From a virus (Duplodnaviria; Caudoviricetes), in IMG/VR virus record IMGVR_UViG_3300014202_000529, positions 32,001 to 96,000 of that record: DNA of 64,000 bases. One strand, 5' to 3'. Positions within the stretch are counted from its first letter, which is position 1. Each line of letters opens with the position of its first letter. This document shows positions 22,910-40,302 of this stretch, piece by piece. The position numbers and the translations under genes were made by a program. The notes under the pieces were generated by a model that made no database searches, was not told the DNA's origin, and saw nothing but the letters and a program-made list of their open reading frames with translations.

Positions 22910-22984
22910 TGGTGGGTTGGCTAGGTACTGCCCCTAGTTCCTCCGGTTAAAAGCCGGGAGCTTCACTTACAAAGCTTACAACCC
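22910..22984 (-). tRNA. tRNA-Lys(TTT)
   Basis: Cloverleaf, CCA; atypical T-loop. Confidence 0.85.
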
Positions 22985-22986
22985 AA

Positions 22987-23125: not shown

Positions 23126-23141
23126 AAAATATTTCTTACGA

Positions 23142-23217
23142 TGGAGCGGGCTATGGGAATTGCACCCATACGTCCAGGTTGGAAGCCTAGCATGCTGCTG
23201 TTGAACATCAAGCCCGC
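23142..23217 (-). tRNA. tRNA-Gly(TCC)
   Basis: Cloverleaf, U73, CCA. Confidence 0.88.
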
Positions 23218-23275
23218 ATATGATCGGAATTTTAACACATCACCCTACGTCTGTCAATACTATATCGCCAGTTTT

Positions 23276-23350
23276 TGGAGCGGATGGTGGGAGTCGAACC
23301 CACGTGATCTTCCTTGGCAAGGAAGCACATAACCGTTCTGTCACATCCGC
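23276..23350 (-). tRNA. tRNA-Gly(GCC)
   Basis: Cloverleaf, CCA. Confidence 0.9.
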
Positions 23351-23352
23351 AA

Positions 23353-24375
23353 TTAAACTTGATTAATGTGTCTCATGAACTTCTTCGTCTCAACCCACCA
23401 AGGCATATTCTCATCCCAGTCTACCACATCCCAACTACCAGTCCAAATTATCACACCATCTGCAATCTCATGAAGGACTTGAAGCTGCAATGCCCAAAAT
23501 TCCGGTTCAACTAACCTTAACCCATTAGGGGGTGGAAGAGAATTGTGATACCTTGGCCATATAAAAGGATATATGGGTTTATCACCTGCATATCTCCTGG
23601 CTTCTTTAATATTTTCTACCGCGTATCGAACCCAACTATCCCAAGGGTCATTTCTTAGTACATACAAGGATGGTGCAAGAAAACTGACTTTATCCACTAC
23701 AGACTGAACGAGTGCGTTTTCTGACTGCCACCTATTGTATCCACTCACTCTTCGTATTGCTCGATCATAATCCCGACGAGGCAAAAACCCATACATCCCC
23801 AAGTTCATGGTGGGTTTTATTTCCCGCATCCAATCAAAAACTTGGATATGATTCGCTCTCTGTTGCGCCCCAAACTCATCATCCGTATAAAACTGGTAAC
23901 TCTCAATGTCGGTGATAATTGGGGTGTCATCATCATACTGAAGTGCATTGTTTGCAATATTCTTAACTGTTCCCTCATGGGGAAGAGCTAAATGATCCGG
24001 TTGACCATTGAAAAATGTATTCTCGAAATAGATTCGCGCTCGTTTGATGCCATATAACCCCAAAAGATCCGGTTTATTCAGATAGGGGGTTGTGTCGAAA
24101 ATTCTAAACGGGTGCGTTTTAAGTTTTTTTCGGGTCTGTCGGACATCTTGCTCTAAGCTTCTGTCCCACCCCGTACCGTTCCACCGATATATTTTACCAT
24201 CCCGTTGATCGATCCGATGAACCCCTGTGTGTCCTGGGGTTAGGTTTTCTATTTCTCTGTCGCCATATTGATATGCTGCAGTCCAATTTGTCAGTACCGT
24301 TGGATCATTATTCGCTTTCAACCAAAGAACTTTATCATTAGAGTGATAAAATAACTCCCCGTTCCACCTAGACAT
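23353..24375 (-). CDS. Putative glycoside hydrolase-like (hyaluronidase-like TIM barrel) protein
   Basis: IITDIES, GMYGFLP, FLAPSLY, KPIYPFIWPRYH, ADGVIIW. Confidence 0.5.
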   Translation of the reverse strand: MSRWNGELFYHSNDKVLWLKANNDPTVLTNWTAAYQYGDREIENLTPGHTGVHRIDQRDGKIYRWNGTGWDRSLEQDVRQTRKKLKTHPFRIFDTTPYLNKPDLLGLYGIKRARIYFENTFFNGQPDHLALPHEGTVKNIANNALQYDDDTPIITDIESYQFYTDDEFGAQQRANHIQVFDWMREIKPTMNLGMYGFLPRRDYDRAIRRVSGYNRWQSENALVQSVVDKVSFLAPSLYVLRNDPWDSWVRYAVENIKEARRYAGDKPIYPFIWPRYHNSLPPPNGLRLVEPEFWALQLQVLHEIADGVIIWTGSWDVVDWDENMPWWVETKKFMRHINQV

Positions 24376-24525
24376 GTTACTTCTTACACTCTGAGCAAGG
24401 GTACCAGTATCCTATTGTACCATTGACGCAAAGATGAGCATTCATATGATCGAACTCCGCCTCCTTGCGCGATGGCGATTTCTTTTTAGTATTCCTGCTC
24501 ACATGAACCTCCATAATATAATAAA

Positions 24526-24600
24526 TGGTGCGAGGTCGGAGAATCGAACTCCGGTGTCAGGCTCTTCAGGCCCGCGCTTTGCCAACTAAGCTAACCCCGC
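24526..24600 (-). tRNA. tRNA-Phe(GAA)
   Basis: Cloverleaf, CCA. Confidence 0.9.
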
Positions 24601-24604
24601 ATAA

Positions 24605-24682
24605 TGGCTCCGGTCCCAGGGATCGAACCTGGCTCATTCCGCATTAACAGTGCGGCGCACTCACCCTGAGTGCTAGACCGGA
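24605..24682 (-). tRNA. tRNA-Asn(GTT)
   Basis: Cloverleaf, CCA. Confidence 0.9.
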
Positions 24683-24700
24683 ATAATCTCTATTCAATTT

Positions 24701-24776
24701 TGGTAGGGACACCTGGGCTTGAACCAAGTCTTAAGGTTTCAGAGACCTTCGTGCTCCCAATTACACCATATCCCCA
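24701..24776 (-). tRNA. tRNA-Gln(CTG)
   Basis: Cloverleaf, CCA. Confidence 0.88.
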
Positions 24777-24779
24777 CTA

Positions 24780-25106
24780 CTATCGTGCATGTTTAGGTAA
24801 TATTTCAGGGAAATACCTAGGGCACAAATAAACCATCAGTATCACAACAATAATACTAGAACCCCCCAAACCAAAGACCACGGACCAATCCCAATCCAAC
24901 CCCCACCCTCTAATAGTGGTGAAAGTTATAGATTTTCCTATGATAACCCCCAGACCCAACCAAATAGCAAACCAAAGTAACCAATCAGAAACCATAGCAA
25001 CAAACATTCCACAAACAATAAACAATGCTCCCATAGTTTTCCCAACAACCCCAAATTCATCAAGCAACTCATTAAGTTGATTGTCATTCATTACAAAGCT
25101 CCCCAT
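24780..25106 (-). CDS. Membrane hypothetical protein
   Basis: Three hydrophobic segments. Confidence 0.5.
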   Translation of the reverse strand: MGSFVMNDNQLNELLDEFGVVGKTMGALFIVCGMFVAMVSDWLLWFAIWLGLGVIIGKSITFTTIRGWGLDWDWSVVFGLGGSSIIVVILMVYLCPRYFPEILPKHAR

Positions 25107-25608
25107 TAAACCATTTAAAACGTAACTTAACTTCTTCTAGAGCAATGGGTTTATATTCGGTCTGCTCAACACAAACACACACATACCACGGATCATCTAG
25201 AACATTTGCATGTGTGTGACCATGAACATTTGCAACAAATCTTCCCTTACTCTCAGGATGCACTGGAATATGGGATAACAGCATCCTATCGAGAATGTGA
25301 TATCCTCGAATATCACGAAAATGCTTCAGGTAATCGGTGATCTTGAAGATATCATGATTACCCTTAATTAAAACCTTGTCACCATTCAATCGTTGCAAAA
25401 CCGCTAATGCTTTTCTAGCAATAACCACATCCCCCAGGTGATACACTTTATCATTCGGACGGACAACCTTGTTCCATTCCTGGATCATGTATTCATCCAT
25501 TTCCTCTGGTGAATCCCACGGTCTCAGTTTGGTACCGTCATTTCTGAGGAACTTACAGACCCCAGCATGACTAAAATGTGTATCGGCTGTAAGAAATATG
25601 TTACTCAT
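25084..25608 (-). CDS. Calcineurin-like phosphoesterase
   Basis: TADTHFSH, YHLGDV, KGNHD, LSHIP, NVHGHTH. Confidence 0.92.
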   Translation of the reverse strand: MSNIFLTADTHFSHAGVCKFLRNDGTKLRPWDSPEEMDEYMIQEWNKVVRPNDKVYHLGDVVIARKALAVLQRLNGDKVLIKGNHDIFKITDYLKHFRDIRGYHILDRMLLSHIPVHPESKGRFVANVHGHTHANVLDDPWYVCVCVEQTEYKPIALEEVKLRFKWFNGELCNE

Positions 25609-25612
25609 AATA

Positions 25613-25686
25613 TGGCCGGGACACTCGGTAACGCTCCGAGTCCAACTGGTTCAAAGCCAGCTATGCTTCTTTTACACCATGTCCCA
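25613..25686 (-). tRNA. tRNA-Gln(TTG)
   Basis: Cloverleaf, CCA; atypical T-loop. Confidence 0.83.
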
Positions 25687-25972
25687 AAAACTGATCCAAT
25701 CCTTCTTTATTTGCGAGTCTCTTTAACGTTTCTGCATGACACCGTTTTGGTGCACAATGACACTTGAGATTCTTACCAACCAACGGATCTAACCAATTGG
25801 GGTCTTCTTTTAATCTCTTCGTTGCATACTCTTCAAACTCATCACATACTCTGTTGCGTTCCTCAAGAGTATCTATGGTCATTATGAAGGGGTTACCCCA
25901 AGGAGTTGATCGATCCACCAAGACCGCTCGACTCATGACTCCTTCAACATCTCTGATATGGTAAATCTTCAT
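25661..25972 (-). CDS. DUF4326-family protein
   Basis: VDRSTPWGNPF, L.GKNLKCHCAPKRCHAETL. Confidence 0.85.
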   Translation of the reverse strand: MKIYHIRDVEGVMSRAVLVDRSTPWGNPFIMTIDTLEERNRVCDEFEEYATKRLKEDPNWLDPLVGKNLKCHCAPKRCHAETLKRLANKEGLDQFLGHGVKEA

Positions 25973-25976
25973 AATA

Positions 25977-26066
25977 TGGCGGAAGATACAGGATTTGAAC
26001 CTGTGTGGGAGTTACCCCGCATTGTTTAGCAAACAAGCCCGTTTAGCCAGACTCCGGCAATCTTCC
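25977..26066 (-). tRNA. tRNA-Ser(GCT)
   Basis: Long variable arm, CCA. Confidence 0.9.
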
Positions 26067-26073
26067 TCGTCTA

Positions 26074-26148
26074 TGGAGTCGCCGATAGGACTCGAACCTA
26101 CATACAACTGCTTTGCAGGCAGCGACCTAGCCTTTCAGTCACGGCGAC
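26074..26148 (-). tRNA. tRNA-Cys(GCA)
   Basis: Cloverleaf, U73, CCA. Confidence 0.9.
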
Positions 26149-26153
26149 ATATA

Positions 26154-26229
26154 TGGCGCGCCCGATGGGTAACGATCCCACTTCATTCCTGATTGACAAT
26201 CAGGCGTCCATCCTACAGACTCCGAGCGC
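26154..26229 (-). tRNA. tRNA-Asp(GTC)
   Basis: Cloverleaf, G73, CCA. Confidence 0.85.
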
Positions 26230-26243
26230 ATTCTATTATTTTC

Positions 26244-26327
26244 TGGTGGACCATCAAGGAATCGAACCTTGTGGGAATTAACGACTGGTTTACAGCCAGC
26301 CCCGCCTCCATAACGGTCTAATGGTCC
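26244..26327 (-). tRNA. tRNA-Tyr(GTA)
   Basis: Cloverleaf with extended variable region, CCA. Confidence 0.87.
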
Positions 26328-26335
26328 ATAAATCT

Positions 26336-26432
26336 TGGGTGCCTAGGTCCCCGGTTATTTCCAGACTGGGGGGACTCCACGAATGTCTGGCCAGATGTTC
26401 CCATGTCAACACCCTGGGGAACCCGCGACTCT
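26336..26432 (-). ncRNA. Putative ~100-nt GC-rich structured RNA behind its own promoter
   Basis: TTGACA-17-TAGAAT upstream; GGUUCCC/GGGGACC and CCAGAC/GUCUGG stems. Confidence 0.45.
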
Positions 26433-26477
26433 ATTTCAGATTCTAACACACCATCGGGAACATGTCAACTACTAATT

Positions 26478-26567
26478 TGGTCCACCCGTTAGGAATCGAA
26501 CCTAAACGAGGCTCCAATCTAGAGCGAGGGGTTTATAAGACCCCCTTGCCTCCAAGGCGCGGGTGGA
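26478..26567 (-). tRNA. Atypical tRNA with UAU anticodon (allo-tRNA-like; long V arm, tiny D arm)
   Basis: GGGGU-CUUAUAA-ACCCC arm, GCUC-UAGAUUG-GAGC variable arm, GCCU-UGG-AGGC D hairpin, CCA. Confidence 0.75.
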
Positions 26568-26576
26568 TATTTTATT

Positions 26577-26652
26577 TGGTGCCTGTGGTAGGATTTGAAC
26601 CTACACTTGACGGCTTCTAAGACCGTTGACTCTGCCGTTGGTCTACACAGGC
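26577..26652 (-). tRNA. tRNA-Leu(TAG), short variable arm
   Basis: Cloverleaf, CCA. Confidence 0.87.
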
Positions 26653-26657
26653 GATAT

Positions 26658-27116
26658 TTAAAATTTCTTACTGACTTCATTTGAAAGGGGACTCAAGTTT
26701 CCCTTTGCATCCTTCGCTTTCAGTGCAAAGTAATATGTAGCACCTTTCAAGATCCCTGTCAACTTCAATTCTGTTACTAACCCAATTTCAATTGGTGTCT
26801 GATACTTTCCCGGCTCCAGACCCCAATACACCAGATACCCACTTGTTACCCCATCAACCGGTGGAGCCCATGTTAATGTTGCTTCCCCCATAATCACTAC
26901 AGGTGGGGTTGCTGCTGCGATTTCAGCAAGCATTGCATCTTTACCACCAGGATTCGACCATGATTTACCTACAAACTTACCAGAGTGGCATTCATATACA
27001 TTCGACTTATTGTTGTTATGACACCCATATGAATCCAATGCACCAGCATGTGGAAACGCTGAGGAGGCACTAAGGAATAAGAACAATGTGGCAACCACAC
27101 TCACTATAATATTCAT
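26658..27116 (-). CDS. Secreted YHYH-like plus fibronectin type III domain protein
   Basis: Signal peptide, HAGALDSYGCH..YECH, TLTW..P..GYLVYWG..YYFALKA.D..GN.S..SNEV. Confidence 0.8.
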   Translation of the reverse strand: MNIIVSVVATLFLFLSASSAFPHAGALDSYGCHNNNKSNVYECHSGKFVGKSWSNPGGKDAMLAEIAAATPPVVIMGEATLTWAPPVDGVTSGYLVYWGLEPGKYQTPIEIGLVTELKLTGILKGATYYFALKAKDAKGNLSPLSNEVSKKF

Positions 27117-27130
27117 ACATCCTCCGGTTA

Positions 27131-27204
27131 TGGTGGCGGTAGAAGGAGTTGCACCTTCTCAGTACGACTTATGAAATCGTCTGGCTGCGCTTGTGCTTAC
27201 CGCC
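27131..27204 (-). tRNA. tRNA-Met/Ile2(CAT)
   Basis: Cloverleaf, CCA. Confidence 0.78.
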
Positions 27205-27210
27205 TTTATA

Positions 27211-27286
27211 TGGTAGCGGGTTAACGAGTTGCACGTTAAACTCAAGGTTATGAGCCTTGACGGGTCGCTGTCCCCTTCCACCCGCA
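27211..27286 (-). tRNA. tRNA-fMet-like (CAT)
   Basis: Unpaired 1:72, GGCTCATAACC anticodon arm, CCA. Confidence 0.8.
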
Positions 27287-27292
27287 AATTTT

Positions 27293-27420
27293 AAAACTGA
27301 GAGGCCGTGCTTCCGTTACACCACATTCCTACGTTACCGATCTTACTGGTGGCCATCCAGGAGTCTTAATTCATGATCGGTGTTCAGAACAATCGGATTT
27401 GAACCGTTCCTGCCCCGTTA
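27293..27420 (-). ncRNA. Circularly permuted tRNA-like RNA 2 (YrlA-like architecture)
   Basis: Order: GGGGC, T arm CGG-UUCAAAU-CCG, acceptor-like stem closed by an ACCGAUC/GAUCGGU insert, D arm GUGU-AACGGAA-GCAC, GCCUC. Confidence 0.7.
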
Positions 27421-27497
27421 TGGTGCCTCTGGTAGGACTCGAACCTACACTAAACAGGCTCTCGACCTGCCGACTCTGCCAATTGGTCTACAGAGGC
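27421..27497 (-). tRNA. tRNA-Leu(GAG), short variable arm, C33
   Basis: GCAGG-TCGAGAG-CCTGT arm, CCA. Confidence 0.83.
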
Positions 27498-27501
27498 GAA
27501 A

Positions 27502-27579
27502 TGGTCTGGGCGGCAGGATTTGAACCTGCGATTTCTCGCCTCCAAAGCGAGAGGAGTGGCCGGACTCTCCTACACCCAG
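27502..27579 (-). tRNA. tRNA-Pro(TGG)
   Basis: Cloverleaf, CCA. Confidence 0.9.
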
Positions 27580-27587
27580 ATATATTT

Positions 27588-27662
27588 TGGCGCTCCTTGT
27601 GGGTATCGATCCCACTTCATATGCTTGAAAGGCATATATCCTAGCCAGTAGACGAAAGGAGC
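27588..27662 (-). tRNA. tRNA-Glu(TTC)
   Basis: Cloverleaf, CCA. Confidence 0.87.
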
Positions 27663-27670
27663 AAAAATTT

Positions 27671-27744
27671 TGGTGGACCTTGACGGTAACCCTCCGTCCC
27701 CGCCCGGGTGCAAACCGGGAATGCTCGTTCAACACCTAAGGCCC
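27671..27744 (-). tRNA. tRNA-Ala(TGC)
   Basis: G3:U70, CCA; atypical T-loop. Confidence 0.82.
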
Positions 27745-27751
27745 AATACCC

Positions 27752-28005
27752 ACCATTTAACCTCCACGAAGCAGGAGGCACCATCTTTCTGGGGTCCATA
27801 AGGAGAGTCCCAGAAATTAAGCTGGTGGACTTACTTACCGTCTAAGGGTATCTAGTGAACCAATCTAGCCCTTTATCGGCTACGGAGCGATCCACAACCC
27901 CTAGACTACCTCTATCTATGTAACCCCCGCACCACGTCTTTGAAGCCGATCCAATCCAATTTAACGGCGCGAGCGACTTCCTCTAACAATGATACTGAGG
28001 GGTCC
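27752..28005 (-). ncRNA. Putative ~250-nt structured RNA between tRNA-His and tRNA-Ala
   Basis: CUCGCGCCG/UGGUGCGGG, GUCUAGGGG/CCCUUAGAC with GUGGA/UCCAC pseudoknot, UUCUGGG/CCCAGAA, GCCUCC/GGAGGU. Confidence 0.55.
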
Positions 28006-28079
28006 TGGGGTGATCGGTGGGTAATGCTCCCACTTTTCCTGGGCCACAACCAGGCGCATTTCTTTTATGCTACGACCAC
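28006..28079 (-). tRNA. tRNA-His(GTG)
   Basis: Cloverleaf, C73, CCA; no encoded G-1. Confidence 0.85.
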
Positions 28080-28084
28080 AACTG

Positions 28085-28275
28085 ATCCACTATTTTTCAA
28101 GTGGAAATTGTTACCCCTTTACCCCACCGTGCGTAATGAGAACCACCGCAACAAAGGCAGTGGAAGAGATAACTCCATCGATCCGGGTCTCATGGAGCCG
28201 GAAATTGCGGGCATTTGATGGGTAGCGCCCTACTACCTTAGTGCAGTCTTCCTCTTGCGGAGTAGTTTCTGCCAC
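28085..28275 (-). ncRNA. Putative ~190-nt structured RNA between tRNA-Thr and tRNA-His
   Basis: CCGCAA/UUGCGG, CCGG/CCGG crossed with CUCCAU/AUGGAG (H-type pseudoknot); no ORF on the coding strand. Confidence 0.5.
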
Positions 28276-28276
28276 A

Positions 28277-28352
28277 TGGAGCCGCCAACTGGACTTGCAC
28301 CAGCCTATTCCTGCTTACAAGACAGGCGATCAACTATCTGACCCATAGCGGC
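28277..28352 (-). tRNA. tRNA-Thr(TGT)
   Basis: Cloverleaf, CCA. Confidence 0.87.
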
Positions 28353-28403
28353 ATATCTCTTTTAACACATAAACCAACAGTATCGTCATTGACGCATAGA
28401 CCA

Positions 28404-28507
28404 GTGTATTGGGTGCAGGATTTCTGGGATGGTGTGCCCAAAGCCTACCTGCGCTTCTCACGGTGCACCTACTGAGTGTGCTTGGTGTTTACACTAACCC
28501 AATACCC
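28404..28507 (-). ncRNA. Putative ~105-nt multi-stem RNA directly after the HNH stop
   Basis: GUAUUGGGU/ACCCAAUAC closing stem enclosing GCAC/GUGC and GCAGG/CCUGC arms. Confidence 0.5.
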
Positions 28508-28513
28508 CGTTTC

Positions 28514-29047
28514 CTATTTCAATTCGACATTCCAGTACAAGTAATCTGCCCATGTTTCTGGCATCTTGCGCAATCCCAACGTCACTGTTACCACTTGGGA
28601 CCATACTGGTTGCTTAGGTTTCTTGAGCAACTTCATTCCTGCTTGCTCTGGTGTCCTACCCTCTTTCTTAGAGTTACATGGGACACATGCCGTTACAATG
28701 TTCTCCCAAGTCTTCGTTCCACCCTGAGCAACCGGTTTCACGTGGTCAAATGTCAACTCTTCTGATTCAAACTTTTGAGCACAGTACTGGCAATGAAAAC
28801 CGTCCCTAGTGAAAATGTTCAAACGAGTAAATTTCACTGGTGCTTTTCTGCGAAAACGAACCGGAACCAACATCCTCAACACCGAAGGAATCTTCATGCT
28901 AAACGAAATAGAATGGATTTCCTCTTCGTGCTCTTCAATAACTTCTACTTTACCAGTCCAGAGCAAAGTGATTGCTCGCTGCCAATTGACAACTTGTAGA
29001 GGTTCATATGAGCTGTTCAAGAGCAATGTCATATGCATGATAACCAC
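28514..29047 (-). CDS. HNH endonuclease (McrA-like)
   Basis: LLLNSSYEPL, RDGFHCQYC, TFDHVKP..QGG..TWENIVTAC..CN.KK; own promoter TTGACA-17-TAGAGT. Confidence 0.93.
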   Translation of the reverse strand: MVIMHMTLLLNSSYEPLQVVNWQRAITLLWTGKVEVIEEHEEEIHSISFSMKIPSVLRMLVPVRFRRKAPVKFTRLNIFTRDGFHCQYCAQKFESEELTFDHVKPVAQGGTKTWENIVTACVPCNSKKEGRTPEQAGMKLLKKPKQPVWSQVVTVTLGLRKMPETWADYLYWNVELK

Positions 29048-29099
29048 CCTCCAGTTTCCACTACTCTAACACACCACAATTCACTTGTCAACTAGTATT

Positions 29100-29173
29100 T
29101 GGCATGGGATGCAGGAGTCGAACCTGCGCCGGCTGTTTTGGAGACAGCAATGCTACCGTAACACTTATCCCAT
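29100..29173 (-). tRNA. tRNA-Trp(CCA)
   Basis: Cloverleaf, CCA. Confidence 0.9.
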
Positions 29174-29178
29174 ATATT

Positions 29179-29252
29179 TGGTACGCCTCCACAGAATTGC
29201 ACTGTGATCTCCCGCTAATCAGGCGAGGGTACTGCTGTTGTACGAGAGGCGT
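29179..29252 (-). tRNA. tRNA-Ile(GAT)
   Basis: Cloverleaf, CCA. Confidence 0.85.
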
Positions 29253-29261
29253 ATTAAATTT

Positions 29262-29336
29262 TGGTGGAGGCTGGCGGTTCTGCCCCGCCGACTTCTCGGT
29301 GCAAGCGAGATGGTTTCCTAATTAGCCTAAGCCCCC
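29262..29336 (-). tRNA. tRNA-Ala(TGC), first gene of the array
   Basis: G3:U70, CCA. Confidence 0.85.
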
Positions 29337-29851: not shown

Positions 29852-31108
29852 TTATGCTCGATACTGGACCACTACGCGATGCTGTTCCAAGGTTATTATA
29901 TCAGTTGGTTCAACCACCTTACTGCAGGAGAAATAAACTACCCAATCACTATCAGTGTTGATTGCATGGTTGGTATTGACGTTTGCAGAAGTGCTGCCCC
30001 CATAAAAATTTTGCACTGCGAGGGAACTTATTTGTTGTTGTGTATTTCCACGGTTATAGATGATTCCAGATTGATGGAAGGATATATGATTTGTTGCTGT
30101 GATACTATTGATAATCTGACTAGCAGGGCCCAATGCTCGAATACTTATTATCTTGTTGTTGACTGTTCCCCCCATCGTCCAGGTTGCAAAACACTGGACC
30201 CAACCATTTGGACCCATAGATCCACCCGGCACAGTAACCGTTGCCATCGTTTGGAAACCTGTGGTATTTGACGCCACCACCGGAATGGCACTACTAAACA
30301 CTGCAACAGGTTGGTTGTTTGATAATATTAGTGCCGCATTAGAATGGGCTCTTGCATATTGGTCTGTTGTGTTTGCCACTGCAACTGTGACTACATCTGT
30401 GCTTTGATTTGTGGTGATGCTGATACCATCCCCAGCTACCAATGTCAAAGTGTCTGCATTTGCGTCAGAAACAATATTATTTTGACCTGATACTGAAATA
30501 GTAGAAAAGCTATTGATAGAAGATGAAATGGTTATGGTGTTGTCCGACCCGGACACATCGATACCAGAACCAGGAGAAAGCACAACAACATCTGCATTGC
30601 TCTCTGCGAGCAAGCTTCCCTTATCCTGGATGCCAATAGACGAAAAAGCATTCTGTGCTCTAAGGTTTGCCAAATCAAAAGAAGAATTGGAATGGGCGCG
30701 GGCAAACCCATCCAGTGCTGTTGATGTAACAGTAATGGTGTTGTTCCCCGGATCTGTGGTGATGGAAGTTCCAGTTCCGGGCGTGATTACTAAAGTATCA
30801 GAATTGGATGCAGCAACAATGTTGTTTTGCCCAGACACTTCGATTGTCACAAATGCATCCTGCACTGTGGAATTTGCCTTCTCGAATGCGGCATTTGCTA
30901 CAGTTCTTGCTTCATCATCTGAGTTTCCGTTTGAAATGGTAGTGTTCGCCCCACCAGGTGTTGCTCCATCGCTTAAACGAATAGATCCAGCACCCGGATC
31001 ATAAAACAAATCACCAGGTTGACCAATGAAATTAGTGACTTGCGTTCCACCTAGTTTTTGTACAAGTACTTTATACGTAACGTTGTTCGCCATAATACCC
31101 CCAGACAC
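29852..31108 (-). CDS. Fibre/virion adhesin-like protein, paralogue 3
   Basis: N-terminal GDLFYDP..IRLSDG.TPGG module, repeated DTLTL.AG.GISITT units. Confidence 0.6.
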   Translation of the reverse strand: MSGGIMANNVTYKVLVQKLGGTQVTNFIGQPGDLFYDPGAGSIRLSDGATPGGANTTISNGNSDDEARTVANAAFEKANSTVQDAFVTIEVSGQNNIVAASNSDTLVITPGTGTSITTDPGNNTITVTSTALDGFARAHSNSSFDLANLRAQNAFSSIGIQDKGSLLAESNADVVVLSPGSGIDVSGSDNTITISSSINSFSTISVSGQNNIVSDANADTLTLVAGDGISITTNQSTDVVTVAVANTTDQYARAHSNAALILSNNQPVAVFSSAIPVVASNTTGFQTMATVTVPGGSMGPNGWVQCFATWTMGGTVNNKIISIRALGPASQIINSITATNHISFHQSGIIYNRGNTQQQISSLAVQNFYGGSTSANVNTNHAINTDSDWVVYFSCSKVVEPTDIITLEQHRVVVQYRA

Positions 31109-31121
31109 CTTTCACTATAAA

Positions 31122-32360
31122 TTATGCTCCGTATTGTGCTATTACCGAATACTGTTCTAATGTCACTCGTTCAGTTGCAACCGTTTTAGTCACTGCGAAA
31201 TGGATTTCCCAATCATTGTCAGTATTAATTGTATGGCTAAAACCACCTTCTGAAGAAACCGCACCATAGTAAAACTGAGAAACGGGACCACTAATTTGTG
31301 AATTGACATTGCCCCTATTATGTATATCACCAACCATATACAGCGAAATCTGGTTTGTTGCTGAGAGGTTTGTAAGTCTTGTTCCAGTGGAACTAAGTGT
31401 GCGAATGCTAAGGTCCTTAGCCGAGGCACTTGCATCCATTGTCCACAATGAAACACATTGTACCCATCCATTGGGACCCAATAGACCACCAGGTACCGTA
31501 ACAGTAACAAGCGATTGAGCCGTATTTACATTTGCAGCCAGGGTTGACACCGCAGAGTGTGCGACGATCATAGGACCGGTATTTAGTGCCGCAAATGCAC
31601 CATTCGCATGATCTCTTGCAAATTGGTCAATTGTATTTGCTGCCGAAATAGTCAGAGTAGCGTTCGCTGGATCTGTGGTGATGGATATTCCGTTTCCTGT
31701 TGCCAAGGTCAAGGTATCGGCATTTGCATCTGCAACCACATTATTTTGGCCAGAGACCGCAATGGTCGAAAAGCTATTGATCGAAGATCTGATAATGATG
31801 GTATTGTCAGACCCGGACATATCAATACCAGCACCAGGTGAAAGGATCACACTATCTGCATTCGTGGCTGCAGTTACGTTTCCCTTATCTTCCACTGCAA
31901 TGATGCTGAAAACATTTTGCCCCCTGGTATTTGCAAGATTGAATGCAGAATTGACATGAGTTCTTGCGTATGTGTCGTTTGCTGTTGTTGTGATTGTAAG
32001 AGTAGTATTTGTTGGATCTGTGGTGACTGATACCCCCACTCCAGCACGAATACGCAATATACTTGTGTTAGATGTCGAAACAATATTATTCTGCCCAGCA
32101 ACATTTATGCTGACAAATGCATTTTGTGCAACACTGTTCGATTTCTCAAATGCCAATGCGGCAACAGTGCGAGCAATAATATCAGTGACCTCTGCGCTGA
32201 CTGATGTGCTTCTTCCACCTGGTGTAGATCCATCGCTTAGACGCAGTTCTCCGCGTCCTGGATCATAAAATAATTCTCCAGGTAGCCCGATAAAGTCAGT
32301 GACTTGTCTACCACCGATCTTTTCAATATAAATTCTATAGGTAACATTATTTGCTGACAT
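31122..32360 (-). CDS. Fibre/virion adhesin-like protein, paralogue 2
   Basis: Same architecture as neighbours. Confidence 0.6.
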   Translation of the reverse strand: MSANNVTYRIYIEKIGGRQVTDFIGLPGELFYDPGRGELRLSDGSTPGGRSTSVSAEVTDIIARTVAALAFEKSNSVAQNAFVSINVAGQNNIVSTSNTSILRIRAGVGVSVTTDPTNTTLTITTTANDTYARTHVNSAFNLANTRGQNVFSIIAVEDKGNVTAATNADSVILSPGAGIDMSGSDNTIIIRSSINSFSTIAVSGQNNVVADANADTLTLATGNGISITTDPANATLTISAANTIDQFARDHANGAFAALNTGPMIVAHSAVSTLAANVNTAQSLVTVTVPGGLLGPNGWVQCVSLWTMDASASAKDLSIRTLSSTGTRLTNLSATNQISLYMVGDIHNRGNVNSQISGPVSQFYYGAVSSEGGFSHTINTDNDWEIHFAVTKTVATERVTLEQYSVIAQYGA

Positions 32361-32436
32361 AATACCCCCTAATCACACCCTTCCTTATATTTATGAACAC
32401 AATCCAAACGACATATGTAGAATGGAAGTATTAACA

Positions 32437-33675
32437 CTAGTCTCTATGATTAACAACTACTCGATATTGCTCCAAGGTAACACCATCAGTAGCTACTGAT
32501 TTCGTCACAACAAACAATATGGACAAATCGCTACTGGTGTCAATGGACGATGTTAATTGGTTAACAGAAGCGGTTGCACCATAATGCGCCGATATGCCAG
32601 CCGGGGCAGCAATCTGAGATGATACGTTTCCTCTATTATAAAATAGACCACCCTGGCGAAACCCAACCTGGGTGGAGAGTGTCAATGATGCAATTGCGAA
32701 TCCTGCCGCAGCGTTAAGTCTGATGCTAACGGGCTTATTATTAGAACCATTAGCGGACCAAATTGCTGTACAGTGCACCCACCCATTTGCACCAATCGAT
32801 CCACCAGGAATGATAACGGTGGCTAATGCTTGTGTTGAGGTTGTGACTTCTGCAACAATCGGAACGGCAGAATGTGCAATAACCACTTCATCTGTGTTTG
32901 CTGTTGTGAATGCTTCGTTCGCCCAATCACGCGAAGTTTGATCGATAGTATTTGCTGCAGTAAATGTGATGGTATCAGTGACAGAATTTGTTGTGATGCT
33001 CACCCCATTGCCAGCTACCAAGGTCAAGGTATCGGCATTTGCATCTGCAACCACATTATTTTGACCAGAGACCGCAATAGTCGAAAAGCTATTGATCGAT
33101 GAAGAAATAGAAATAGTATTTCCATCGATGCTCATATCTATACCAGCACCAGGCGAAAGAATCACACTATCTGCATTGGTGGCTGATATGAGACTACCCT
33201 TATCCTGAATTGCAATAGTGGAAAAAGCATTTCCTGCTCTGACGTTTGCCAGCGCATATGCACCATTCGCATGATCTCTTGCAAATTGGTCAACTGAATT
33301 TGCTGCAGATATGTGCAAACTACTGTTGCTGGTGTTTGTGGTAAGCTGAATCCCAGACCCAGCTACAATGACCAGGGTGTCATTGTTTGATGTTGCAACT
33401 ACGTTATTTTGACCAGCAACGTTCAATGTGACAAATGCGTTTTGTGCTGCACCATTTGCTTTGGTTCGAGCACCCGTTGCTCTTGCGCGGGCATAATCAT
33501 CAGAACCATCGATGCTAGTGGTGACATTGACGCCGCCCATAGTAACACCGTCACCAAGACGCAATTCTCCGCTTCCTGGATCATAGAATATCTCACCGGG
33601 GGCCGCAATGAATTCATCATACGGCATTCCACCAAGCTTCTCTAAAAATACCCTGTAAATTACATTATTAGCCAT
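32437..33675 (-). CDS. Fibre/virion adhesin-like protein, paralogue 1
   Basis: Same architecture; late promoter upstream. Confidence 0.6.
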   Translation of the reverse strand: MANNVIYRVFLEKLGGMPYDEFIAAPGEIFYDPGSGELRLGDGVTMGGVNVTTSIDGSDDYARARATGARTKANGAAQNAFVTLNVAGQNNVVATSNNDTLVIVAGSGIQLTTNTSNSSLHISAANSVDQFARDHANGAYALANVRAGNAFSTIAIQDKGSLISATNADSVILSPGAGIDMSIDGNTISISSSINSFSTIAVSGQNNVVADANADTLTLVAGNGVSITTNSVTDTITFTAANTIDQTSRDWANEAFTTANTDEVVIAHSAVPIVAEVTTSTQALATVIIPGGSIGANGWVHCTAIWSANGSNNKPVSIRLNAAAGFAIASLTLSTQVGFRQGGLFYNRGNVSSQIAAPAGISAHYGATASVNQLTSSIDTSSDLSILFVVTKSVATDGVTLEQYRVVVNHRD

Positions 33676-35524: not shown

Positions 35525-37039
35525 CTATCTAGTTAACTCATGATAACACTTTTCAATATGCTTGTCAACCACCCCATCAATTCTAGAACGAATTGAAGAA
35601 AGGGTATTCAGTCTCACCGAAAGACCATTACTCAGACCATTATGGAATACTAAATCAAGAAGACCCAACCGCATAGAATCTTCTTTTGTTAATTCGTCAA
35701 CTAAAACCAACCCCCCATTACGATCCTCTACCGCAAGATACCCCTTTGCGGATTTCTTTGTTCCATTGTCAGTTTTGGGGTCTTTAAACACGTGAAGCTC
35801 TTTCCCATCAACATATCCCGCAGTCGCTTTAATTGCCATCCCGAATGTATCCCGCGTCACATGTTGATAGGTGTAGCTCCCGATCCCAAACACAATATTT
35901 GTAGAAGCAAATCCAAGCGACATGAGCTGTCTGCAAATTTCATCTGCTCTCTCAAGTGTGATGGAATCTCCATAGATCATTCCAATATGAGGGTCAAGTT
36001 GTCGATATCCCTTTGAGTTGACCGTTCCACCAAATACCTTCCAGAGCAATCGAGCAGTTCCTTCGTTCTCTGGTGTTCCCAATGGAGCATCAAGATCACC
36101 ACAAATGATCTTCACTGGATCTCCTGAGTCTGGACGAATAACAACCTTTCCATCCCTGGACATGATTTTATCTTTCAGGGTTGGAAGTGTCTCTGTTAAA
36201 ATCTTCCAATAATCCCATGTATCGGAGACGATAGACACAATACCCTTTGGATAGACCTTGCTGATCAATCGATCATAGGTTTCTAACTCAGTTTCCTTTC
36301 CACCAAAACACATCACCGAATGCTCCGTTGCAGCAACAGACCCACCAATCATAGTGTCCCCAATGACTGCATGATAATATGTTTCCAGCATATCAATTGC
36401 AGGGATGGTATCTGTTCCATAAAAAGAGAGTAGGTGTCCTGCACTTGACACCGAAGCACTCTCTAGACTCGTCTGACCACGCATTGAAAAGTCATGTCCT
36501 TGCCACAAGACGAATTCTGGAAGATCGGAACTAGCTGCAGCGTATTTTTCCAACAATTTCCTATACTCGAATGCAATGGTGGCTACTGTAATTGGATGCC
36601 AAAGAACCGTTGACATGAGAGTTTCGAGGAAATTGGTCAACCAAAAGAACTTGGGATTAGTGTTCTCAATTGTTAAAAACGGAACTCTTAATGGGACAAG
36701 TGTTCCCTCTGGGAGTGCTCGGATACTAATGGGGAGATATCCCAGATCATGCAATTCCTCAATGTGGTCCAGTGGCACCGAATCGGGACCCAATGAAGTA
36801 TCAAGCCTTCGTTTATATTTGAGAAGTACTTCCTCTTTTGGTTTATTGAAAAAGTTTTCGTTGAACTCCTCGATCAAATATTTCTTGATAAAGTATTGGA
36901 GACCGAAGAATACAACATGATTCACACCAGGGATTCTAGAGCTTCGCGCCGTCATGTTCGAGTAGACGTACTGAGTATTTTCTGGGTACTGTCTACGATG
37001 ATCGGTTTTGTAGAAATCGCTGTAGTGAATCGGGGTCAT
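35525..37039 (-). CDS. nadV: Nicotinamide phosphoribosyltransferase-like (NadV / Namat of NARP1)
   Basis: DFYKTDH, HDFSMRG, ATEHSVM, SIVSDTWD, IRPDSGDP, YGDSIT, TRDTFG.A.KAT. Confidence 0.93.
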   Translation of the reverse strand: MTPIHYSDFYKTDHRRQYPENTQYVYSNMTARSSRIPGVNHVVFFGLQYFIKKYLIEEFNENFFNKPKEEVLLKYKRRLDTSLGPDSVPLDHIEELHDLGYLPISIRALPEGTLVPLRVPFLTIENTNPKFFWLTNFLETLMSTVLWHPITVATIAFEYRKLLEKYAAASSDLPEFVLWQGHDFSMRGQTSLESASVSSAGHLLSFYGTDTIPAIDMLETYYHAVIGDTMIGGSVAATEHSVMCFGGKETELETYDRLISKVYPKGIVSIVSDTWDYWKILTETLPTLKDKIMSRDGKVVIRPDSGDPVKIICGDLDAPLGTPENEGTARLLWKVFGGTVNSKGYRQLDPHIGMIYGDSITLERADEICRQLMSLGFASTNIVFGIGSYTYQHVTRDTFGMAIKATAGYVDGKELHVFKDPKTDNGTKKSAKGYLAVEDRNGGLVLVDELTKEDSMRLGLLDLVFHNGLSNGLSVRLNTLSSIRSRIDGVVDKHIEKCYHELTR

Positions 37040-37863
37040 ACTGCCCTCCCATCCATTTGTTTTTGATGTTGTTTTGATAACAATGGCACCATTCCCTCTC
37101 TCGTCCACACTTCATCAATAATACCATCAAACACTTCCAGACCCTTAGAAAATATACCATGCGTCACCATGAGAACAATTTTCTTTGGAGCATGATGAAG
37201 TCTAATTTCTTTTGCAATTTCGATGAATGTTCTTCCACCATCACAAATATCATCTACCATCACACAGGTTTTACCGTCTAATTCATGTGCGGGCGCATTA
37301 ACCTTGACTCCGGTAATGTCTCCGGTTTGTGTATTTCGAAGCTTACTGCACTCCACAACCCCCTTAACTTTAAAGGATTCCTTAGAGAGACGATAGATTT
37401 TCTTAAGCGCCCCTGCATCAGGGGAAATGAGAATCACATTATCATCATGGGAAAACCATGAATTCAACATAGGATAGAAAATTGTCGATTGGTGAACGAC
37501 ATACACATTATCTAACAATGCAGGAAGAACATCGGAATGGGGGTCATGTGTTACGACTTCCTCTGCTCCCAACTGATTAATTAACCCACACATCACCTTG
37601 AGCGAAAAACAATCCCCATAATTGGCTACACGATCCTGGCGAGAAAATGGAAAATAGGGAATGATCAATTTATCTATTTTATACCCATGTTGTTTTAGAG
37701 CACTACTCAAAAGTAGTATCTCCATGATCTCCTCAGTGGATTCAAATAACCACTCAACATTCCCCTTATCAGGATATGTCACATCGTCCTCAAGAAGGAG
37801 TTGAACATGCATTTCGCCGGCAGGAAATTTGATTTTCTTATATTTCACAAATGACTTAATCAT
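37036..37863 (-). CDS. Ribose-phosphate pyrophosphokinase-like (Prs / Adps of NARP1)
   Basis: FPAGE, PYFPFSRQDR, DPHS, SPDAGA, MVDDICDGGRTF, VTHGIFS. Confidence 0.92.
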   Translation of the reverse strand: MIKSFVKYKKIKFPAGEMHVQLLLEDDVTYPDKGNVEWLFESTEEIMEILLLSSALKQHGYKIDKLIIPYFPFSRQDRVANYGDCFSLKVMCGLINQLGAEEVVTHDPHSDVLPALLDNVYVVHQSTIFYPMLNSWFSHDDNVILISPDAGALKKIYRLSKESFKVKGVVECSKLRNTQTGDITGVKVNAPAHELDGKTCVMVDDICDGGRTFIEIAKEIRLHHAPKKIVLMVTHGIFSKGLEVFDGIIDEVWTREGMVPLLSKQHQKQMDGRAV

Positions 37864-38146
37864 CTAATTCCTCCAGGTCTTTATCATCAAGTTCACACCA
37901 TCGACAACCAGTACCTAGGGTTTCAGTCATACAGTGCATACAGTGACTACAAAGTGTTCCTCGGATCTCTCCTACTATCCGATGCCCCTTGAACCAACAT
38001 ACAACCAAGTTCCACTTCGTAACGATCCACTCTTGAACCTGCATTGGCACCCATGTTGGGATACCTCTATCAGTGGTCCATCCCAACCACCAATCATCCT
38101 CATCTAGCACTGCCCTGAGTCTAACACCCTTATCCATTATTGTCAA
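37856..38146 (-). CDS. Hypothetical protein
   Basis: ORF in operon. Confidence 0.45.
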   Translation of the reverse strand: MTIMDKGVRLRAVLDEDDWWLGWTTDRGIPTWVPMQVQEWIVTKWNLVVCWFKGHRIVGEIRGTLCSHCMHCMTETLGTGCRWCELDDKDLEELDD

Positions 38147-38765
38147 CTAATCCCTTTGGACTTTCATCCCCCTCAATGGTCTTCTTAAAGAACGAATTTG
38201 CAGCAACATGATAGATAACGATACCCTCTGGCTTCATGAACCCAGGAGCAGCAACGCTCCCATTAAATGCCAAATGAGCAAGGGTTACGTTAATCTCGTT
38301 GGTTGTGAACATTCCATCGTACAATACTGGTACCACATGACAACAGGCAGGTTTATTATCTTCCTTCCAACGATCTGTATTGAATAGAGAAAACCTCTTT
38401 TCCTTCAACCCATACTTACGCTGAATACCTGCGCCCCACCACTCTCCGAAATGTCTTCCTATCCCAAGACCTGTAACCAACTCATCCTTATGTTGGAGTG
38501 CCCAAGCACCAAACCCAAAATTATCACATTTCAACACATCATTCTCGACAAGCCATCGAGAGCGACTGCCCGCAAACAATTTACCATCCTCTGTGATAAG
38601 GAGTTGAGCATTGGTCCCATCAATCTTTTCAGTAACCACACAACGACGAGAAAGCCGTGGAATTTTATTGAATGTTTGAAATTCTGTCTCAGCTATTTTG
38701 CGGAGAATCATTGTATCAATTTCATCCCTAATCGGATCGTCTGTGTTCATGATGTCACCTTCCAT
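38130..38765 (-). CDS. RNA ligase (Rnl2-like adenylyltransferase)
   Basis: TEKIDGTNA (motif I), SRSRW, FGEW.G.GIQ, PEGIVI. Confidence 0.85.
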   Translation of the reverse strand: MEGDIMNTDDPIRDEIDTMILRKIAETEFQTFNKIPRLSRRCVVTEKIDGTNAQLLITEDGKLFAGSRSRWLVENDVLKCDNFGFGAWALQHKDELVTGLGIGRHFGEWWGAGIQRKYGLKEKRFSLFNTDRWKEDNKPACCHVVPVLYDGMFTTNEINVTLAHLAFNGSVAAPGFMKPEGIVIYHVAANSFFKKTIEGDESPKGLVDNNG

Positions 38766-39115
38766 CCATCAGCGGATTGCTCTTCGATAAGTAAATTTTG
38801 TGGTATCATTGATTCTTCTACTCGATCCTCCAAAGACTTCTCACCGCGAAGTTTAGCTGCCATACTACGAGCCCATCTCTGAAATGTCTCAGTCTTCCCC
38901 ATTCGCGCAAATGCTGCTTTTTTGTTTTCTAACTGGGTTCTGAATTCCCTAGATTCTCCGCGAGACCCGGATGGATGGTGAATGATACGCACACCAGACT
39001 CAACCTTATTTTGATTTTGCCCACCCTTCCCACCAGCACGAAATGTCTGGATCTCGCAATCTTTTATAGTCACGCTGAATAGGGGTGTCTTTTTGTTTTG
39101 TTGGATCTTATACAT
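38747..39115 (-). CDS. Peptidyl-tRNA hydrolase domain release factor (ArfB/YaeJ-like, GGQ)
   Basis: FRAGGKGGQNQNKVESGVRIIHHPSG..R.QLENK..A. Confidence 0.88.
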   Translation of the reverse strand: MYKIQQNKKTPLFSVTIKDCEIQTFRAGGKGGQNQNKVESGVRIIHHPSGSRGESREFRTQLENKKAAFARMGKTETFQRWARSMAAKLRGEKSLEDRVEESMIPQNLLIEEQSADGWKVTS

Positions 39116-39331
39116 TCTGCTTCTCCAGAACAATGGCATCGGGTGGTGGGGAGATACAATCAAGCACACATTTTACTTCGCCGGTAGTACGAATTCTATT
39201 CATCAATGCAATGTATTCTTTTGCATAGTGTAAGCTTTTAAATGCTTCTCTCAGAAGATTTTCCGCATTTGCTATATGTCTCTGTGCTAGTTCGTTGCAG
39301 TATGTTTCCATCATAGGCTCCATAATAAAAA

Positions 39332-39619
39332 GTGGGGTGGGGGGATTTCCAGGCCCCCCAACGTTCGTTTGGTGTTCGGTTATTTGGCTACAGAACTCAA
39401 CCCGTTCCGGTTACGGATCTCTGCGTTCTGGGGAGAGTGTCTACTCCCAAGCATTCGTCTACTGGTGTATAGGGAGCTACCGAATGCCTTGCGCTCTACC
39501 AGATTAGGATCTTCTGGTATCCTTCAGCCTTACCTCCACCATTCTACTTGTGCTTTCCCTGGTCCTTTCAGGTACTACGCCTTGACCCTGTAGAATGAGT
39601 CTATCAGCCACACCCCACA
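39332..39619 (-). ncRNA. Putative ~290-nt highly structured RNA with its own promoter
   Basis: TTGACG-17-TAGTAT at 39627-39655; GUGGGGUG/CACCCCAC termini plus U tract; many internal stems. Confidence 0.7.
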
Positions 39620-40302
39620 ATTCAACATACTACCACAGTCACTTACCCTCGTCAACTCTTATTTTCGAGTAATTTAATTTTCTCTCGCAATTCTTGAACG
39701 TACTTCACTATGATAGAGGGGACAGAATATTCCCAACACCCGATCCTGTCAAGATCACCATATCCGTATGTAATTGTTTCATCATCAATGAATGTAGATG
39801 CACAAATCTGTCTACCAGACAAGAACATCACAATACCCTGCTTCATTTTCTTATAATACTCAATCTCGTCTTTCAGAGCCTTATTCTCTTCTTTTAACTT
39901 TTTGAGTGTTGAAAGGATAGTCTCTTCTTTTAGATCTTGCAGCTCTTGTGATGTTGTCATGATACTCCCCAGAGAGTTGCAAGGGACATCCCCAACCCAA
40001 TACCGATCATGAAATAGAAAAAGTAATGTATGGTTCTCACTTCTTCTCCTTTCTATCACAGTTAACATAATATTTCATAGACAGGGTGAATATAACCCAC
40101 CAGAACCCAATTACCAAAACTGTTGCAACCATCGTGCCAAGTTCCTCGAACAACCAACCATAGCCCATCGAAAACCCTGATGCCAAAGAGACGCATACAG
40201 CTATCAGAGCACTGAGAAACATCGAACCGGCATACAACGCTGCAATTAAGAAAAGAGAAGCAAAAAGCTGTTTTGCGTAGGGAAGCTCAGGATCATATTT
40301 CA

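Follow-up and report, generated by a model that had tools for sequence, protein, structure and literature searches.

A candidate new family of large structured non-coding RNAs encoded by phages

Background

Large, intricately folded RNAs are rarely found, and RNase P RNA, transfer-messenger RNA (tmRNA), riboswitches, OLE, and the ROOL and GOLLD RNAs each opened new biology. T-box leaders are multi-helix RNAs of about 250–300 nucleotides (nt) with a kink-turn (K-turn), a UGGN element and a terminal helix before a U run. Their UGGN bulge, like the GGU of the RNase P L15 loop, pairs with NCCA ends, and K-turns are found in several riboswitch classes. GOLLD and ROOL occur in phages near transfer RNA (tRNA) genes, and phage T4 encodes, inside its tRNA cluster, two stable RNAs of about 120–140 nt and of unknown function, species 1 and 2 (rnaC, rnaD). 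For the bacterial Y RNAs the operon layout rsr-yrlBA-rtcBA is known. YrlA is characterized in PMC4201824 as a stable RNA whose ends pair and which contains a tRNA-like module, encoded with RNA-repair ligase genes, and GOLLD and ROOL are presented as ornate bacterial RNAs in bioRxiv 10.1101/2024.12.08.627333. Here we describe a structured RNA gene on the minus strand of a 64,000-nt stretch of phage DNA, which we call the window and which corresponds to 32001-96000 of a phage record of 168,789 bp that is complete and bears direct terminal repeats (IMGVR_UViG_3300014202_000529, here G000). Just downstream of the RNA gene lie genes for a release-factor-like GGQ protein, an RNA ligase, and PRS-like and NAMPT-like proteins.

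The original prediction, made from the letters of the window, had offered two interpretations of this locus: a new class of non-coding RNA, or a cis-acting switch controlling ribosome-rescue and nicotinamide adenine dinucleotide (NAD) genes. The first is upheld by covariation in seven members, by the lack of an Rfam match and by an RNA-library contig confined to the RNA; the second is not borne out by the gene contexts described below. The RNA is new at the level of the RNA family and has so far been seen only in phage or metagenome DNA. We consider it probable that it is a free-standing, trans-acting, stable non-coding RNA of a new family carried by phages.

Results and discussion

Covariation and strand

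Seven distinct members were found, all in phage or metagenome contigs: that of the window and those of L004, L227, L112, L262, L108 and L211. When only the window and L004 were compared, 18 of the 68 predicted pairs had changed on both sides and yet stayed paired. In the alignment of all seven sequences, 93.3% of the 526 cells are standard pairs, against 70.6 ± 1.3% after shuffling of columns (none of 500 shuffles was as high), and compensatory changes occur in 56 of the 79 pairs, against 10–18 when partners are slid by one to three columns. Compensatory pairs are present in every helix but P10, which has 3 bp and never varies. On the minus strand 457 of 480 cells can pair, including 47 as G-U, against 416 of 480 on the plus strand; the G-U pairs settle the minus strand as that of the RNA. 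These comparative data show that the fold goes beyond chance and belongs to a genuine structured RNA. All three frames of the RNA strand hold many stops, in line with the expectation that no open reading frame (ORF) is present there.

A conserved DNA element (an origin, a packaging or a recombination site) or a decayed gene, rather than an RNA, could account for a folding energy that does not exceed that of shuffled sequences and for the long open frames on the opposite strand. This explanation is extremely unlikely in view of the number of compensatory pairs, the G-U cells tolerated on one strand only, and an RNA-library contig that is limited to the element. Moreover, the window and L004 do not keep the antisense frames in the same register, and such frames are expected since the RNA strand is purine-rich and its antisense pyrimidine-rich. 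These frames encode 70–74 residues (about 98 codons from stop to stop) at 39295-39593 on the plus strand, and 88 residues in L004; a gene caller could mistake them for genes.

No known family was recognized among the 4227 families of Rfam, as had been supposed by eye, either in the whole window at gathering thresholds or, at E≤10, in positions 39200-39800 and the loci of four other members. Only chance-level matches were obtained (blv_FSE, 15.8 bits; manA, 14.3 bits; OxyS, 12.8 bits; SCARNA7, 12.7 bits). The same search readily finds the tmRNA, RNase P RNA and tRNAs of the phage itself.

Members of the family

Members were sought in four steps, namely at loci around GGQ homologues, with a covariance model, by scans for invariant motifs, and by a profile search. 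Among 68 viral loci around GGQ homologues a single one, L004 on a contig of 168,076 bp, carries the element at the corresponding position, with 70% identity to the window over 304 nt, and the similarity stops at the ends of the RNA. A covariance model built from this pair then found full-length matches elsewhere, including a 176-kb phage (G001; 98.1 bits) and a complete 64-kb phage (G054; 93.9 bits), which lacks a GGQ gene and had been picked up through a motif scan. Two metagenome contigs, L227 (277.8 bits) and L211 (80.4 bits), were added by scans for the invariant P9/P10 motif, and a profile search of all 477 loci collected (3.9 Mb) added L262, which is the same as L351 (118.4 bits).

The family is rare. 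Out of 67 further phage records with a GGQ homologue, 53 were searched whole, and the RNA was present in two of these (G005 and G001); for whole records with a GGQ homologue the count is four of 55. A blastn search with four members gave no match in cultured phages (INPHARED, 50,697 records), and the genome of 168,789 bp holds no second copy of the RNA. The 14-mer of the P3 loop occurs in 37 stretches, 36 of which were searched with the model and gave only short matches, to the 14-mer itself; the remaining stretch (L105) lies in the L004 contig. No member was present among 80 of the 99 stretches with the P14 hairpin pattern, and none that was new among the three stretches with the pattern GGGAAAG...GTAGAA. 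In bacterial genomes (185,579 species) the invariant P9/P10 pattern was met in seven stretches, none of which is the RNA, a result that covers exact carriers of the motif only. These bacterial stretches, and several of the metagenome stretches with the motif, look like chance or coding matches.

Ends and promoter of the RNA gene

The RNA has a G+C content of 51.5%, against 43.9% for the window. The octamers at its two ends are exact complements of each other and form the terminal helix P1, and a U-rich run follows directly after the 3' strand (Table 1), so that the 8-bp terminal helix with U tract was correctly anticipated. The strand and position also held, the upstream part of the segment that had been assigned to the RNA being a promoter-like site. 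This sigma-70-like site, predicted earlier as a dedicated promoter, has a -10 element that ends 8 nt ahead of P1. Comparable sites lie 7–8 nt ahead of P1 in three of the seven members (the window, L004 and L227, the last with 11 of 12 matches); by the same rule none was identified in L112, L262 and L108, and a weak one in L211.

Table 1. Features of the RNA and of its surroundings in the window
Feature	Position	Strand	Remarks
RNA gene	39332..39618	(-)	287 nt, 14 helices (P1-P14); the two ends pair (P1)
Sigma-70-like promoter	39627..39655	(-)	TTGACG, 17 nt, TAGTAT, with TG upstream; 9/12 matches
P1, 5' strand	39611..39618	(-)	GUGGGGUG; pairs with 39339-39332; 7/8 pairs compensatory
P1, 3' strand	39332..39339	(-)	CACCCCAC; followed by UUUUUAUU at 39331-39324
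P2 (GCU/GGC) around hairpin P3 (GACUC/GGGUC)	39579..39608	(-)	Compensatory: P2 3/3, P3 5/5
Hairpin P4 (CCUG/CAGG)	39558..39572	(-)	3/4 pairs compensatory
GUAGAAU, possible pseudoknot partner of P3 loop	39541..39547	(-)	7 bp in the window (shuffle frequency 0.004)
Long arm P5-P6-P7	39371..39540	(-)	Compensatory: P5 3/4, P6 3/3, P7 3/5
Hairpin P9/P10	39449..39489	(-)	Invariant internal loop GUA opposite AGA; invariant GGUAGCU ... ACCAGUAGACG; P9 6/9 compensatory
Hairpin P12/P13 with predicted kink-turn	39391..39430	(-)	C-stem AAC/GUU, 3-nt bulge GCA, tandem G.A/A.G, as read from the alignment
Terminal hairpin P14	39340..39359	(-)	Stacked directly on P1 3' strand; 6/6 pairs compensatory
Small RNA ligase	38130-38765	(-)	Two genes downstream of the RNA
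PRS-like (275 aa) and NAMPT-like (527 aa) genes, adjacent	35525-37863	(-)	Pfam and PHROG matches
Class A RNase P RNA	21749-22062	(-)	Rfam 208.1 bits; 314 nt, full length but compact, 43 model positions absent
tmRNA	18237-18570	(-)	Rfam 100.8 bits; directly adjoins tRNA-Ser
Nucleotidyltransferase	14814-15752	(-)	
ATP-dependent DNA ligase	13622-14821	(-)	
RtcB-type ligase	11434-12633	(-)	E 2e-141

An RNA-library contig bounded like the RNA

A small share (0.05) of the sampled words of the region was met in four public sequencing runs, a comparison in which uncovered parts are not evidence of absence. From one of them, a soil metatranscriptome (run X1), a single contig of 327 nt was obtained (depth 14.2, 15 mismatches, 6 gaps) that covers 39338-39616 and nothing of the 130–180-nt flank on either side. 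Contigs of 55 kb and 150 kb from DNA runs carry a diverged copy of the RNA and continue beyond it. A relative of the RNA is present in the RNA library, as a unit whose limits resemble those of the predicted RNA, which suggests a discrete, abundant RNA, possibly circular or tandem.

The X1 contig is permuted, with RNA positions ~26-281 followed by 19 extra letters and then by positions 3-55. The same bases of the window are matched by the first 30 letters of the contig and by the last 30, as happens when a k=31 assembly closes on itself, here in a path of ~297 nt. The 19 extra letters resemble a second P14 hairpin with the loop motif of the family and replace the 3' strand of P1; no second P14-like hairpin lies near the RNA in any of the seven DNA loci. 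Circular RNA, tandem units with clipped tips, and an artefact of library or assembly are all possible explanations of this contig, which is the lead most worth following.

If the circular or tandem alternative were correct, the RNA would be a precursor in which P1 joins the ends and a ligase (RtcB, the adjacent RNA ligase or a host enzyme) closes a viroid-sized circle of ~297 nt. The self-overlap of the sole RNA-library contig and the hairpin-like letters with the loop motif agree with this, as do the ligase genes, RtcB being encoded in three of the four member genomes and an RNA ligase two genes downstream in the window. Nevertheless, we regard it as unlikely. The junction is not a simple 3'-to-5' join, since the P1 3' strand is missing and the 19 letters are absent beside the RNA at all seven loci; the same contig would result from a gene for a tandem dimer whose tips were clipped, or from an artefact of library or assembly; and the observation concerns one contig from one run. 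In addition, G054 has neither RtcB nor RNA ligase, and no self-cleaving ribozyme family of Rfam was matched at E≤10 in 39200-39800. The element is encoded in DNA at seven loci. A bolder version, in which the gene is the DNA template of a ~297-nt closed or multimeric RNA made by RtcB or the RNA ligase (Rnl), an exonuclease-proof decoy or scaffold whose two UGG(A/C)A loops would capture tRNA NCCA ends or a defence or processing enzyme, is quite unlikely; if true, this would be the first circular structured non-coding RNA encoded by a DNA phage.

Gene context of the members

The gene context of the RNA differs between members. In the window, L004 and L227 the RNA is followed by a GGQ gene, while in G001 the two are ~130 kb apart. 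In L262 the RNA is followed by two small ORFs and then by PRS/NAMPT-like genes, in L112 by a homologous small ORF, and in L211 it is preceded by two tRNA genes. In G054 it lies within a recombination module with genes for an exonuclease and a Sak4-like annealing protein. No NAMPT-like, PRS-like or GGQ match was obtained in G054 by tblastn with the open frames of G000, no RNA ligase by Pfam, and this phage is also without RtcB and RNase P RNA. Only six of 897 open frames match between G054 and G000, and what the two phages share is limited to tail-fibre-like domains, a 182-residue protein and ribonucleotide reductase; beyond these, no protein was found to be common to all four RNA-carrying genomes. 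RNA ligase is encoded in two of these four, RtcB in three and RNase P RNA in three, and a sub-threshold match to PolyA_pol was seen in G005 only.

Outside the window, four tandem fibre-like paralogues of 600–755 residues with repetitive N-termini are encoded at G000:C1:1-7837, and their C-terminal half is common to one protein of G054 (G054:C1:26776-28368; 22–31% identity). The shared fibre domain hints at a common host range of the two phages.

These varied contexts, including that of G054, where no GGQ, RNA-ligase or NAD genes were found, make a cis-switch for the ribosome-rescue and NAD operon, as originally put forward, unlikely. More generally, the RNA could be a cis-acting leader, a riboswitch or attenuator in which a ligand-dependent P1 and the U-rich run would terminate transcription before the GGQ, RNA-ligase and NAD+ genes. 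Such a leader would account for the U-rich run after P1, for the same-strand position directly upstream of the GGQ gene in three members, and for the position upstream of the PRS/NAMPT-like genes in L262. We consider it very unlikely, because the contexts in G001, G054 and L211 are different, and the RNA accompanies so few of the GGQ-homologue records (four of 55). No anti-terminator or other alternative pairing that would compete with P1 was seen, and P1 and the other helices are kept in all members. Furthermore, a length of ~280 nt far exceeds that of known aptamers, the RNA-library contig stops at the RNA ends, and no riboswitch family was matched. Such a distribution is what one would expect of a self-contained RNA gene passed from phage to phage, perhaps among those of related hosts, and not of a leader tied to a single operon.

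Fold and conserved motifs

In the proposed fold, P1 closes a junction from which four elements emerge: P2/P3, the hairpin P4, the terminal hairpin P14 and a long arm, P5-P6-P7. This arm leads to a second junction, where P8, P9/P10, P11 and P12/P13 meet. Four of the six helices of the original prediction proved right. Besides P1, these are UACCAGA/UCUGGUA, of which UACCA/UGGUA is P8 (five of five pairs compensatory), GCAUUCG/CGAAUGC, which is P9, and UGGGAG/CUCCCCA, of which GGGAG/CUCCC is P11 (three of five compensatory). Two had to be given up: the AGCC of the stem UGGCU/AGCCA pairs with an internal GGCUG in the covarying P7 and not with the 5' UGGCU, and CAUUCUAC/GUAGAAUG is ruled out as a nested stem by its crossing of hairpin P3, for which the support is good, which leaves it a pseudoknot at best. 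The suggested pseudoknot between a CUCCC loop and GGGAG consists simply of the two strands of P11. As a pseudoknot, CAUUCUAC/GUAGAAUG would link the P3 loop, AUUCUAC at 39596-39590, to the complementary segment in J4/5; it has 6–7 bp in three close relatives and 4 bp, not above shuffles, in the other four, and none of its seven pairs is compensatory.

Three conserved elements look like binding sites. The P9/P10 motif is identical in five of the seven members and replaced in L112 and L262, and P10 does not vary in the members that have it. The hairpin P12/P13 is predicted to hold a K-turn: its tandem GA at 39421-39420 stands opposite GA at 39398-39397, the K-turn consensus fits exactly, by sequence pattern, in six of the seven members (L211 is not alignable there), and the pair at columns 254/315, which is the 3b.3n position beside the tandem GA, is non-standard in four of the six, as expected for a K-turn. 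Finally, the loop of P14 contains UGG(A/C)A in all seven members, and no other hairpin of this kind occurs in the 168,789-bp genome. Across the members P1 has 8–11 bp, and P14 has 6–7 bp with a loop of 6–9 nt.

The stacked arrangement of P1 and P14 raises the alternative of a tRNA- or tmRNA-like mimic, in which the two helices would stand in for the acceptor/T arm, with the UGG(A/C)A loop as a possible pairing partner of NCCA 3' ends. A hairpin that abuts the 3' strand of the terminal helix, as in tRNA and tmRNA, together with an invariant loop, is what such a mimic would have, and the neighbourhood of tRNA and ribosome-rescue genes, with L211 adjoining tRNAs, is suggestive as well. The dimensions given above, however, depart from the 7 + 5 bp and the 7-nt T loop of tRNA; G3.U70, an encoded CCA, a D arm and a conserved tag frame are lacking; and no tRNA, tmRNA, T-box or RNase P model was matched, whereas the real tmRNA of the phage scores well (Table 1). 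A mimic of this kind is decidedly unlikely.

Proposed role and its weighing

We propose that the free-standing RNA acts in trans, and not on its neighbours, as a protected scaffold or decoy, although this particular role is doubtful and at most a tentative suggestion. The paired ends and the terminal hairpin would shield the RNA from exonucleases, and the invariant loops (the P9/P10 internal loop, the K-turn and the UGG(A/C)A loop of P14) would bind a host or phage factor. Most plausibly this factor would belong to the RNA-processing, translation or defence machinery that is targeted by the accessory genes of this phage, a guess that is based on the company of the RNA in the large phages: 28 tRNAs, tmRNA, RNase P RNA, RtcB, RNA ligase, and the GGQ, PTH2 and NARP1-like genes.

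Several points weigh against a free-standing RNA of this kind. The alignment was fitted to the structure of the model, so that the covariation counts lean toward that structure, and the seven sequences are related, so that significance is overstated by the shuffle control. The folding energy of the single sequence is no better than expected by chance (z -0.66, with 21 of 100 shuffles folding as well; z -0.97 for the opposite strand), and a simple terminator scan called no terminator at the RNA; the evidence beyond chance is therefore comparative and not thermodynamic. The promoter-like sites are confined to three of the seven members, all close relatives, and the U-rich run is weak in L004 and L227, so that some read-through into downstream genes is likely. 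The GGQ gene of L227 starts 37 nt past the RNA, so that the RNA could act in cis in that member. In five of the seven members (window, L004 and L227 by synteny; L262), PRS/NAMPT-like genes follow the RNA on the same strand; as these phages are related, this is not independent evidence, although it may still reflect a real link. The X1 library, although made from RNA, may contain DNA, and the ends of an RNA cannot be read from contigs. Moreover, no partner protein was found: TROVE/Ro60 is absent from G000, L7Ae-type K-turn binders are absent from all four RNA-carrying genomes, and RNA ligase is present in only two of the four.

The RNA is carried as a mobile unit by otherwise unrelated phages that share tail-fibre domains, and it appears abundant enough in a soil metatranscriptome to be assembled on its own, possibly as a circle. 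The setting in the large phages, among tRNA, ribosome-rescue, RNA-repair and NAD+-reconstitution genes, is one in which counter-defence and host-takeover functions cluster. If the RNA proved to work as a decoy, as a ribozyme or in circular form, the known means of conflict between phage and host would gain an RNA-based tool; otherwise it is still a well-supported orphan RNA family for Rfam.

Surrounding genes of the large phage

Nearly all genes around the RNA gene are carried on the minus strand. Just upstream of the RNA are genes for a PTH2-like hydrolase and a phosphoribosyltransferase, and for an upstream ORF of 138 residues no relatives were found. Between the RNA and the GGQ gene, an ORF of 71 residues (39108-39323, minus strand) starts 8 nt past the U run. 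It has no evident ribosome-binding site and no PHROG or Pfam match, and it is not conserved, an unrelated ORF of 68 residues being present at the same place in L004 and none in L227; it is unlikely to be a gene. For the GGQ gene, the ATG at 39115, which is preceded by GGAG, is the more probable start.

The adjacent PRS-like and NAMPT-like genes appear to resemble Adps and Namat of NARP1, which is described as a phage NAD+-reconstitution pathway for counter-defence (PMC12774641; PMC13586617; bioRxiv 10.1101/2024.02.11.579819); by sequence, the pair could also encode an ordinary phosphoribosyl pyrophosphate synthetase and NAMPT.

A set of RNA/DNA repair genes at 11434-16729 (minus strand), with RtcB, DNA ligase and nucleotidyltransferase, is separate from the small RNA ligase near the RNA, and PhoH is also encoded in the window. 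A dense cluster of RNA genes (tmRNA and tRNAs) occupies 17172-29336 on the same strand and includes a HicB-like ORF (18579-18866) and an HNH endonuclease gene (28517-29047). Rfam identifies 22 tRNAs in the window and ARAGORN 28; the lists differ in that an 89-nt tRNA-Ile(tat) at 26478-26566 is called by ARAGORN alone, and 23148-23215 and 29265-29336 by Rfam alone. Three tandem paralogues of 412–418 residues at 29855-33675 (minus strand) each match phrog_36222, a family of unknown function, over their first ~55 residues only.

The RNase P RNA is also present in both related large phages and is absent from the 64-kb phage G054. Phage-borne RNase P RNA may be little known, as the phrases 'phage-encoded RNase P' and 'viral RNase P RNA' were not met among the best-ranked papers of a phrase search.

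Comparison with known systems

The RNA is like tmRNA in that its ends form a terminal helix, a hairpin is stacked on the 3' strand of that helix, and a large insert replaces the anticodon arm; shortly past the 5' strand comes a hairpin that may form a pseudoknot, and the gene is phage-borne and lies beside ribosome-rescue genes. Every defining feature of tmRNA that was tested fails, and the genuine tmRNA of the phage is encoded elsewhere. The tmRNA model (RF00023) gave no hit at E≤10 at 39200-39800 or in the four other members. The first three pairs of P1 are G-C, U-A and G-C, without G3.U70, and no CCA follows P1 in any of the seven members. There is no conserved tag frame, the sole short frame past the 5' hairpin lying in the paired P5-P8 and ending differently in the window and L004. 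A tRNA bearing a group I intron was likewise rejected, as neither ARAGORN nor Rfam called a tRNA or an intron, P1 has 8–11 bp and no D arm follows it. P14 is not a canonical T arm either, having a loop of 6–9 nt with G instead of C at the C56 position of the T loop. The models of bacterial RNase P RNA (RF00010/RF00011) gave no hit, and a genuine class A copy is encoded at 21749-22062.

With T-box leaders the RNA shares a long multi-helix structure, the K-turn, a conserved UGG element and a closing helix ahead of a U run. Unlike them, it lacks a T-box sequence, is not followed by genes for aminoacyl-tRNA synthetases or amino-acid metabolism, and stands in a variable genomic context. The T-box model (RF00230) gave no hit, and five downstream contexts among the seven members, the lack of alternative pairing and the preservation of all 14 helices do not agree with a T-box or other riboswitch.

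Like YrlA, it has paired ends, is probably stable and is encoded near RNA-repair ligase genes; unlike YrlA, it is not accompanied by a Ro60 gene and is about twice the size. Bacterial Y RNA was rejected as its model gave no hit and no TROVE domain was found in G000 (the control search was positive in two of 14 control genomes).

A catalogue of phage csRNA published in 2023, with 8495 candidates from IMG/VR, gives elements of 29–151 nt (PMC10690425). By the sizes given there, none of the candidates is therefore the whole 287-nt RNA, though a sub-hairpin may be listed.

Species 1 and 2 of T4 are comparable as stable phage RNAs alongside a phage tRNA set; they differ in size and position, and no homology to them is claimed. 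GOLLD, ROOL, raiA and OLE, which are contained in Rfam and gave no match, range from roughly 200 to 800 nt compared with 287 nt here, and the RNA is set apart from them by its paired 5' and 3' ends and its great rarity. Yet, like these orphan RNAs, it has a complex, multi-helix, covarying fold and lacks coding potential.

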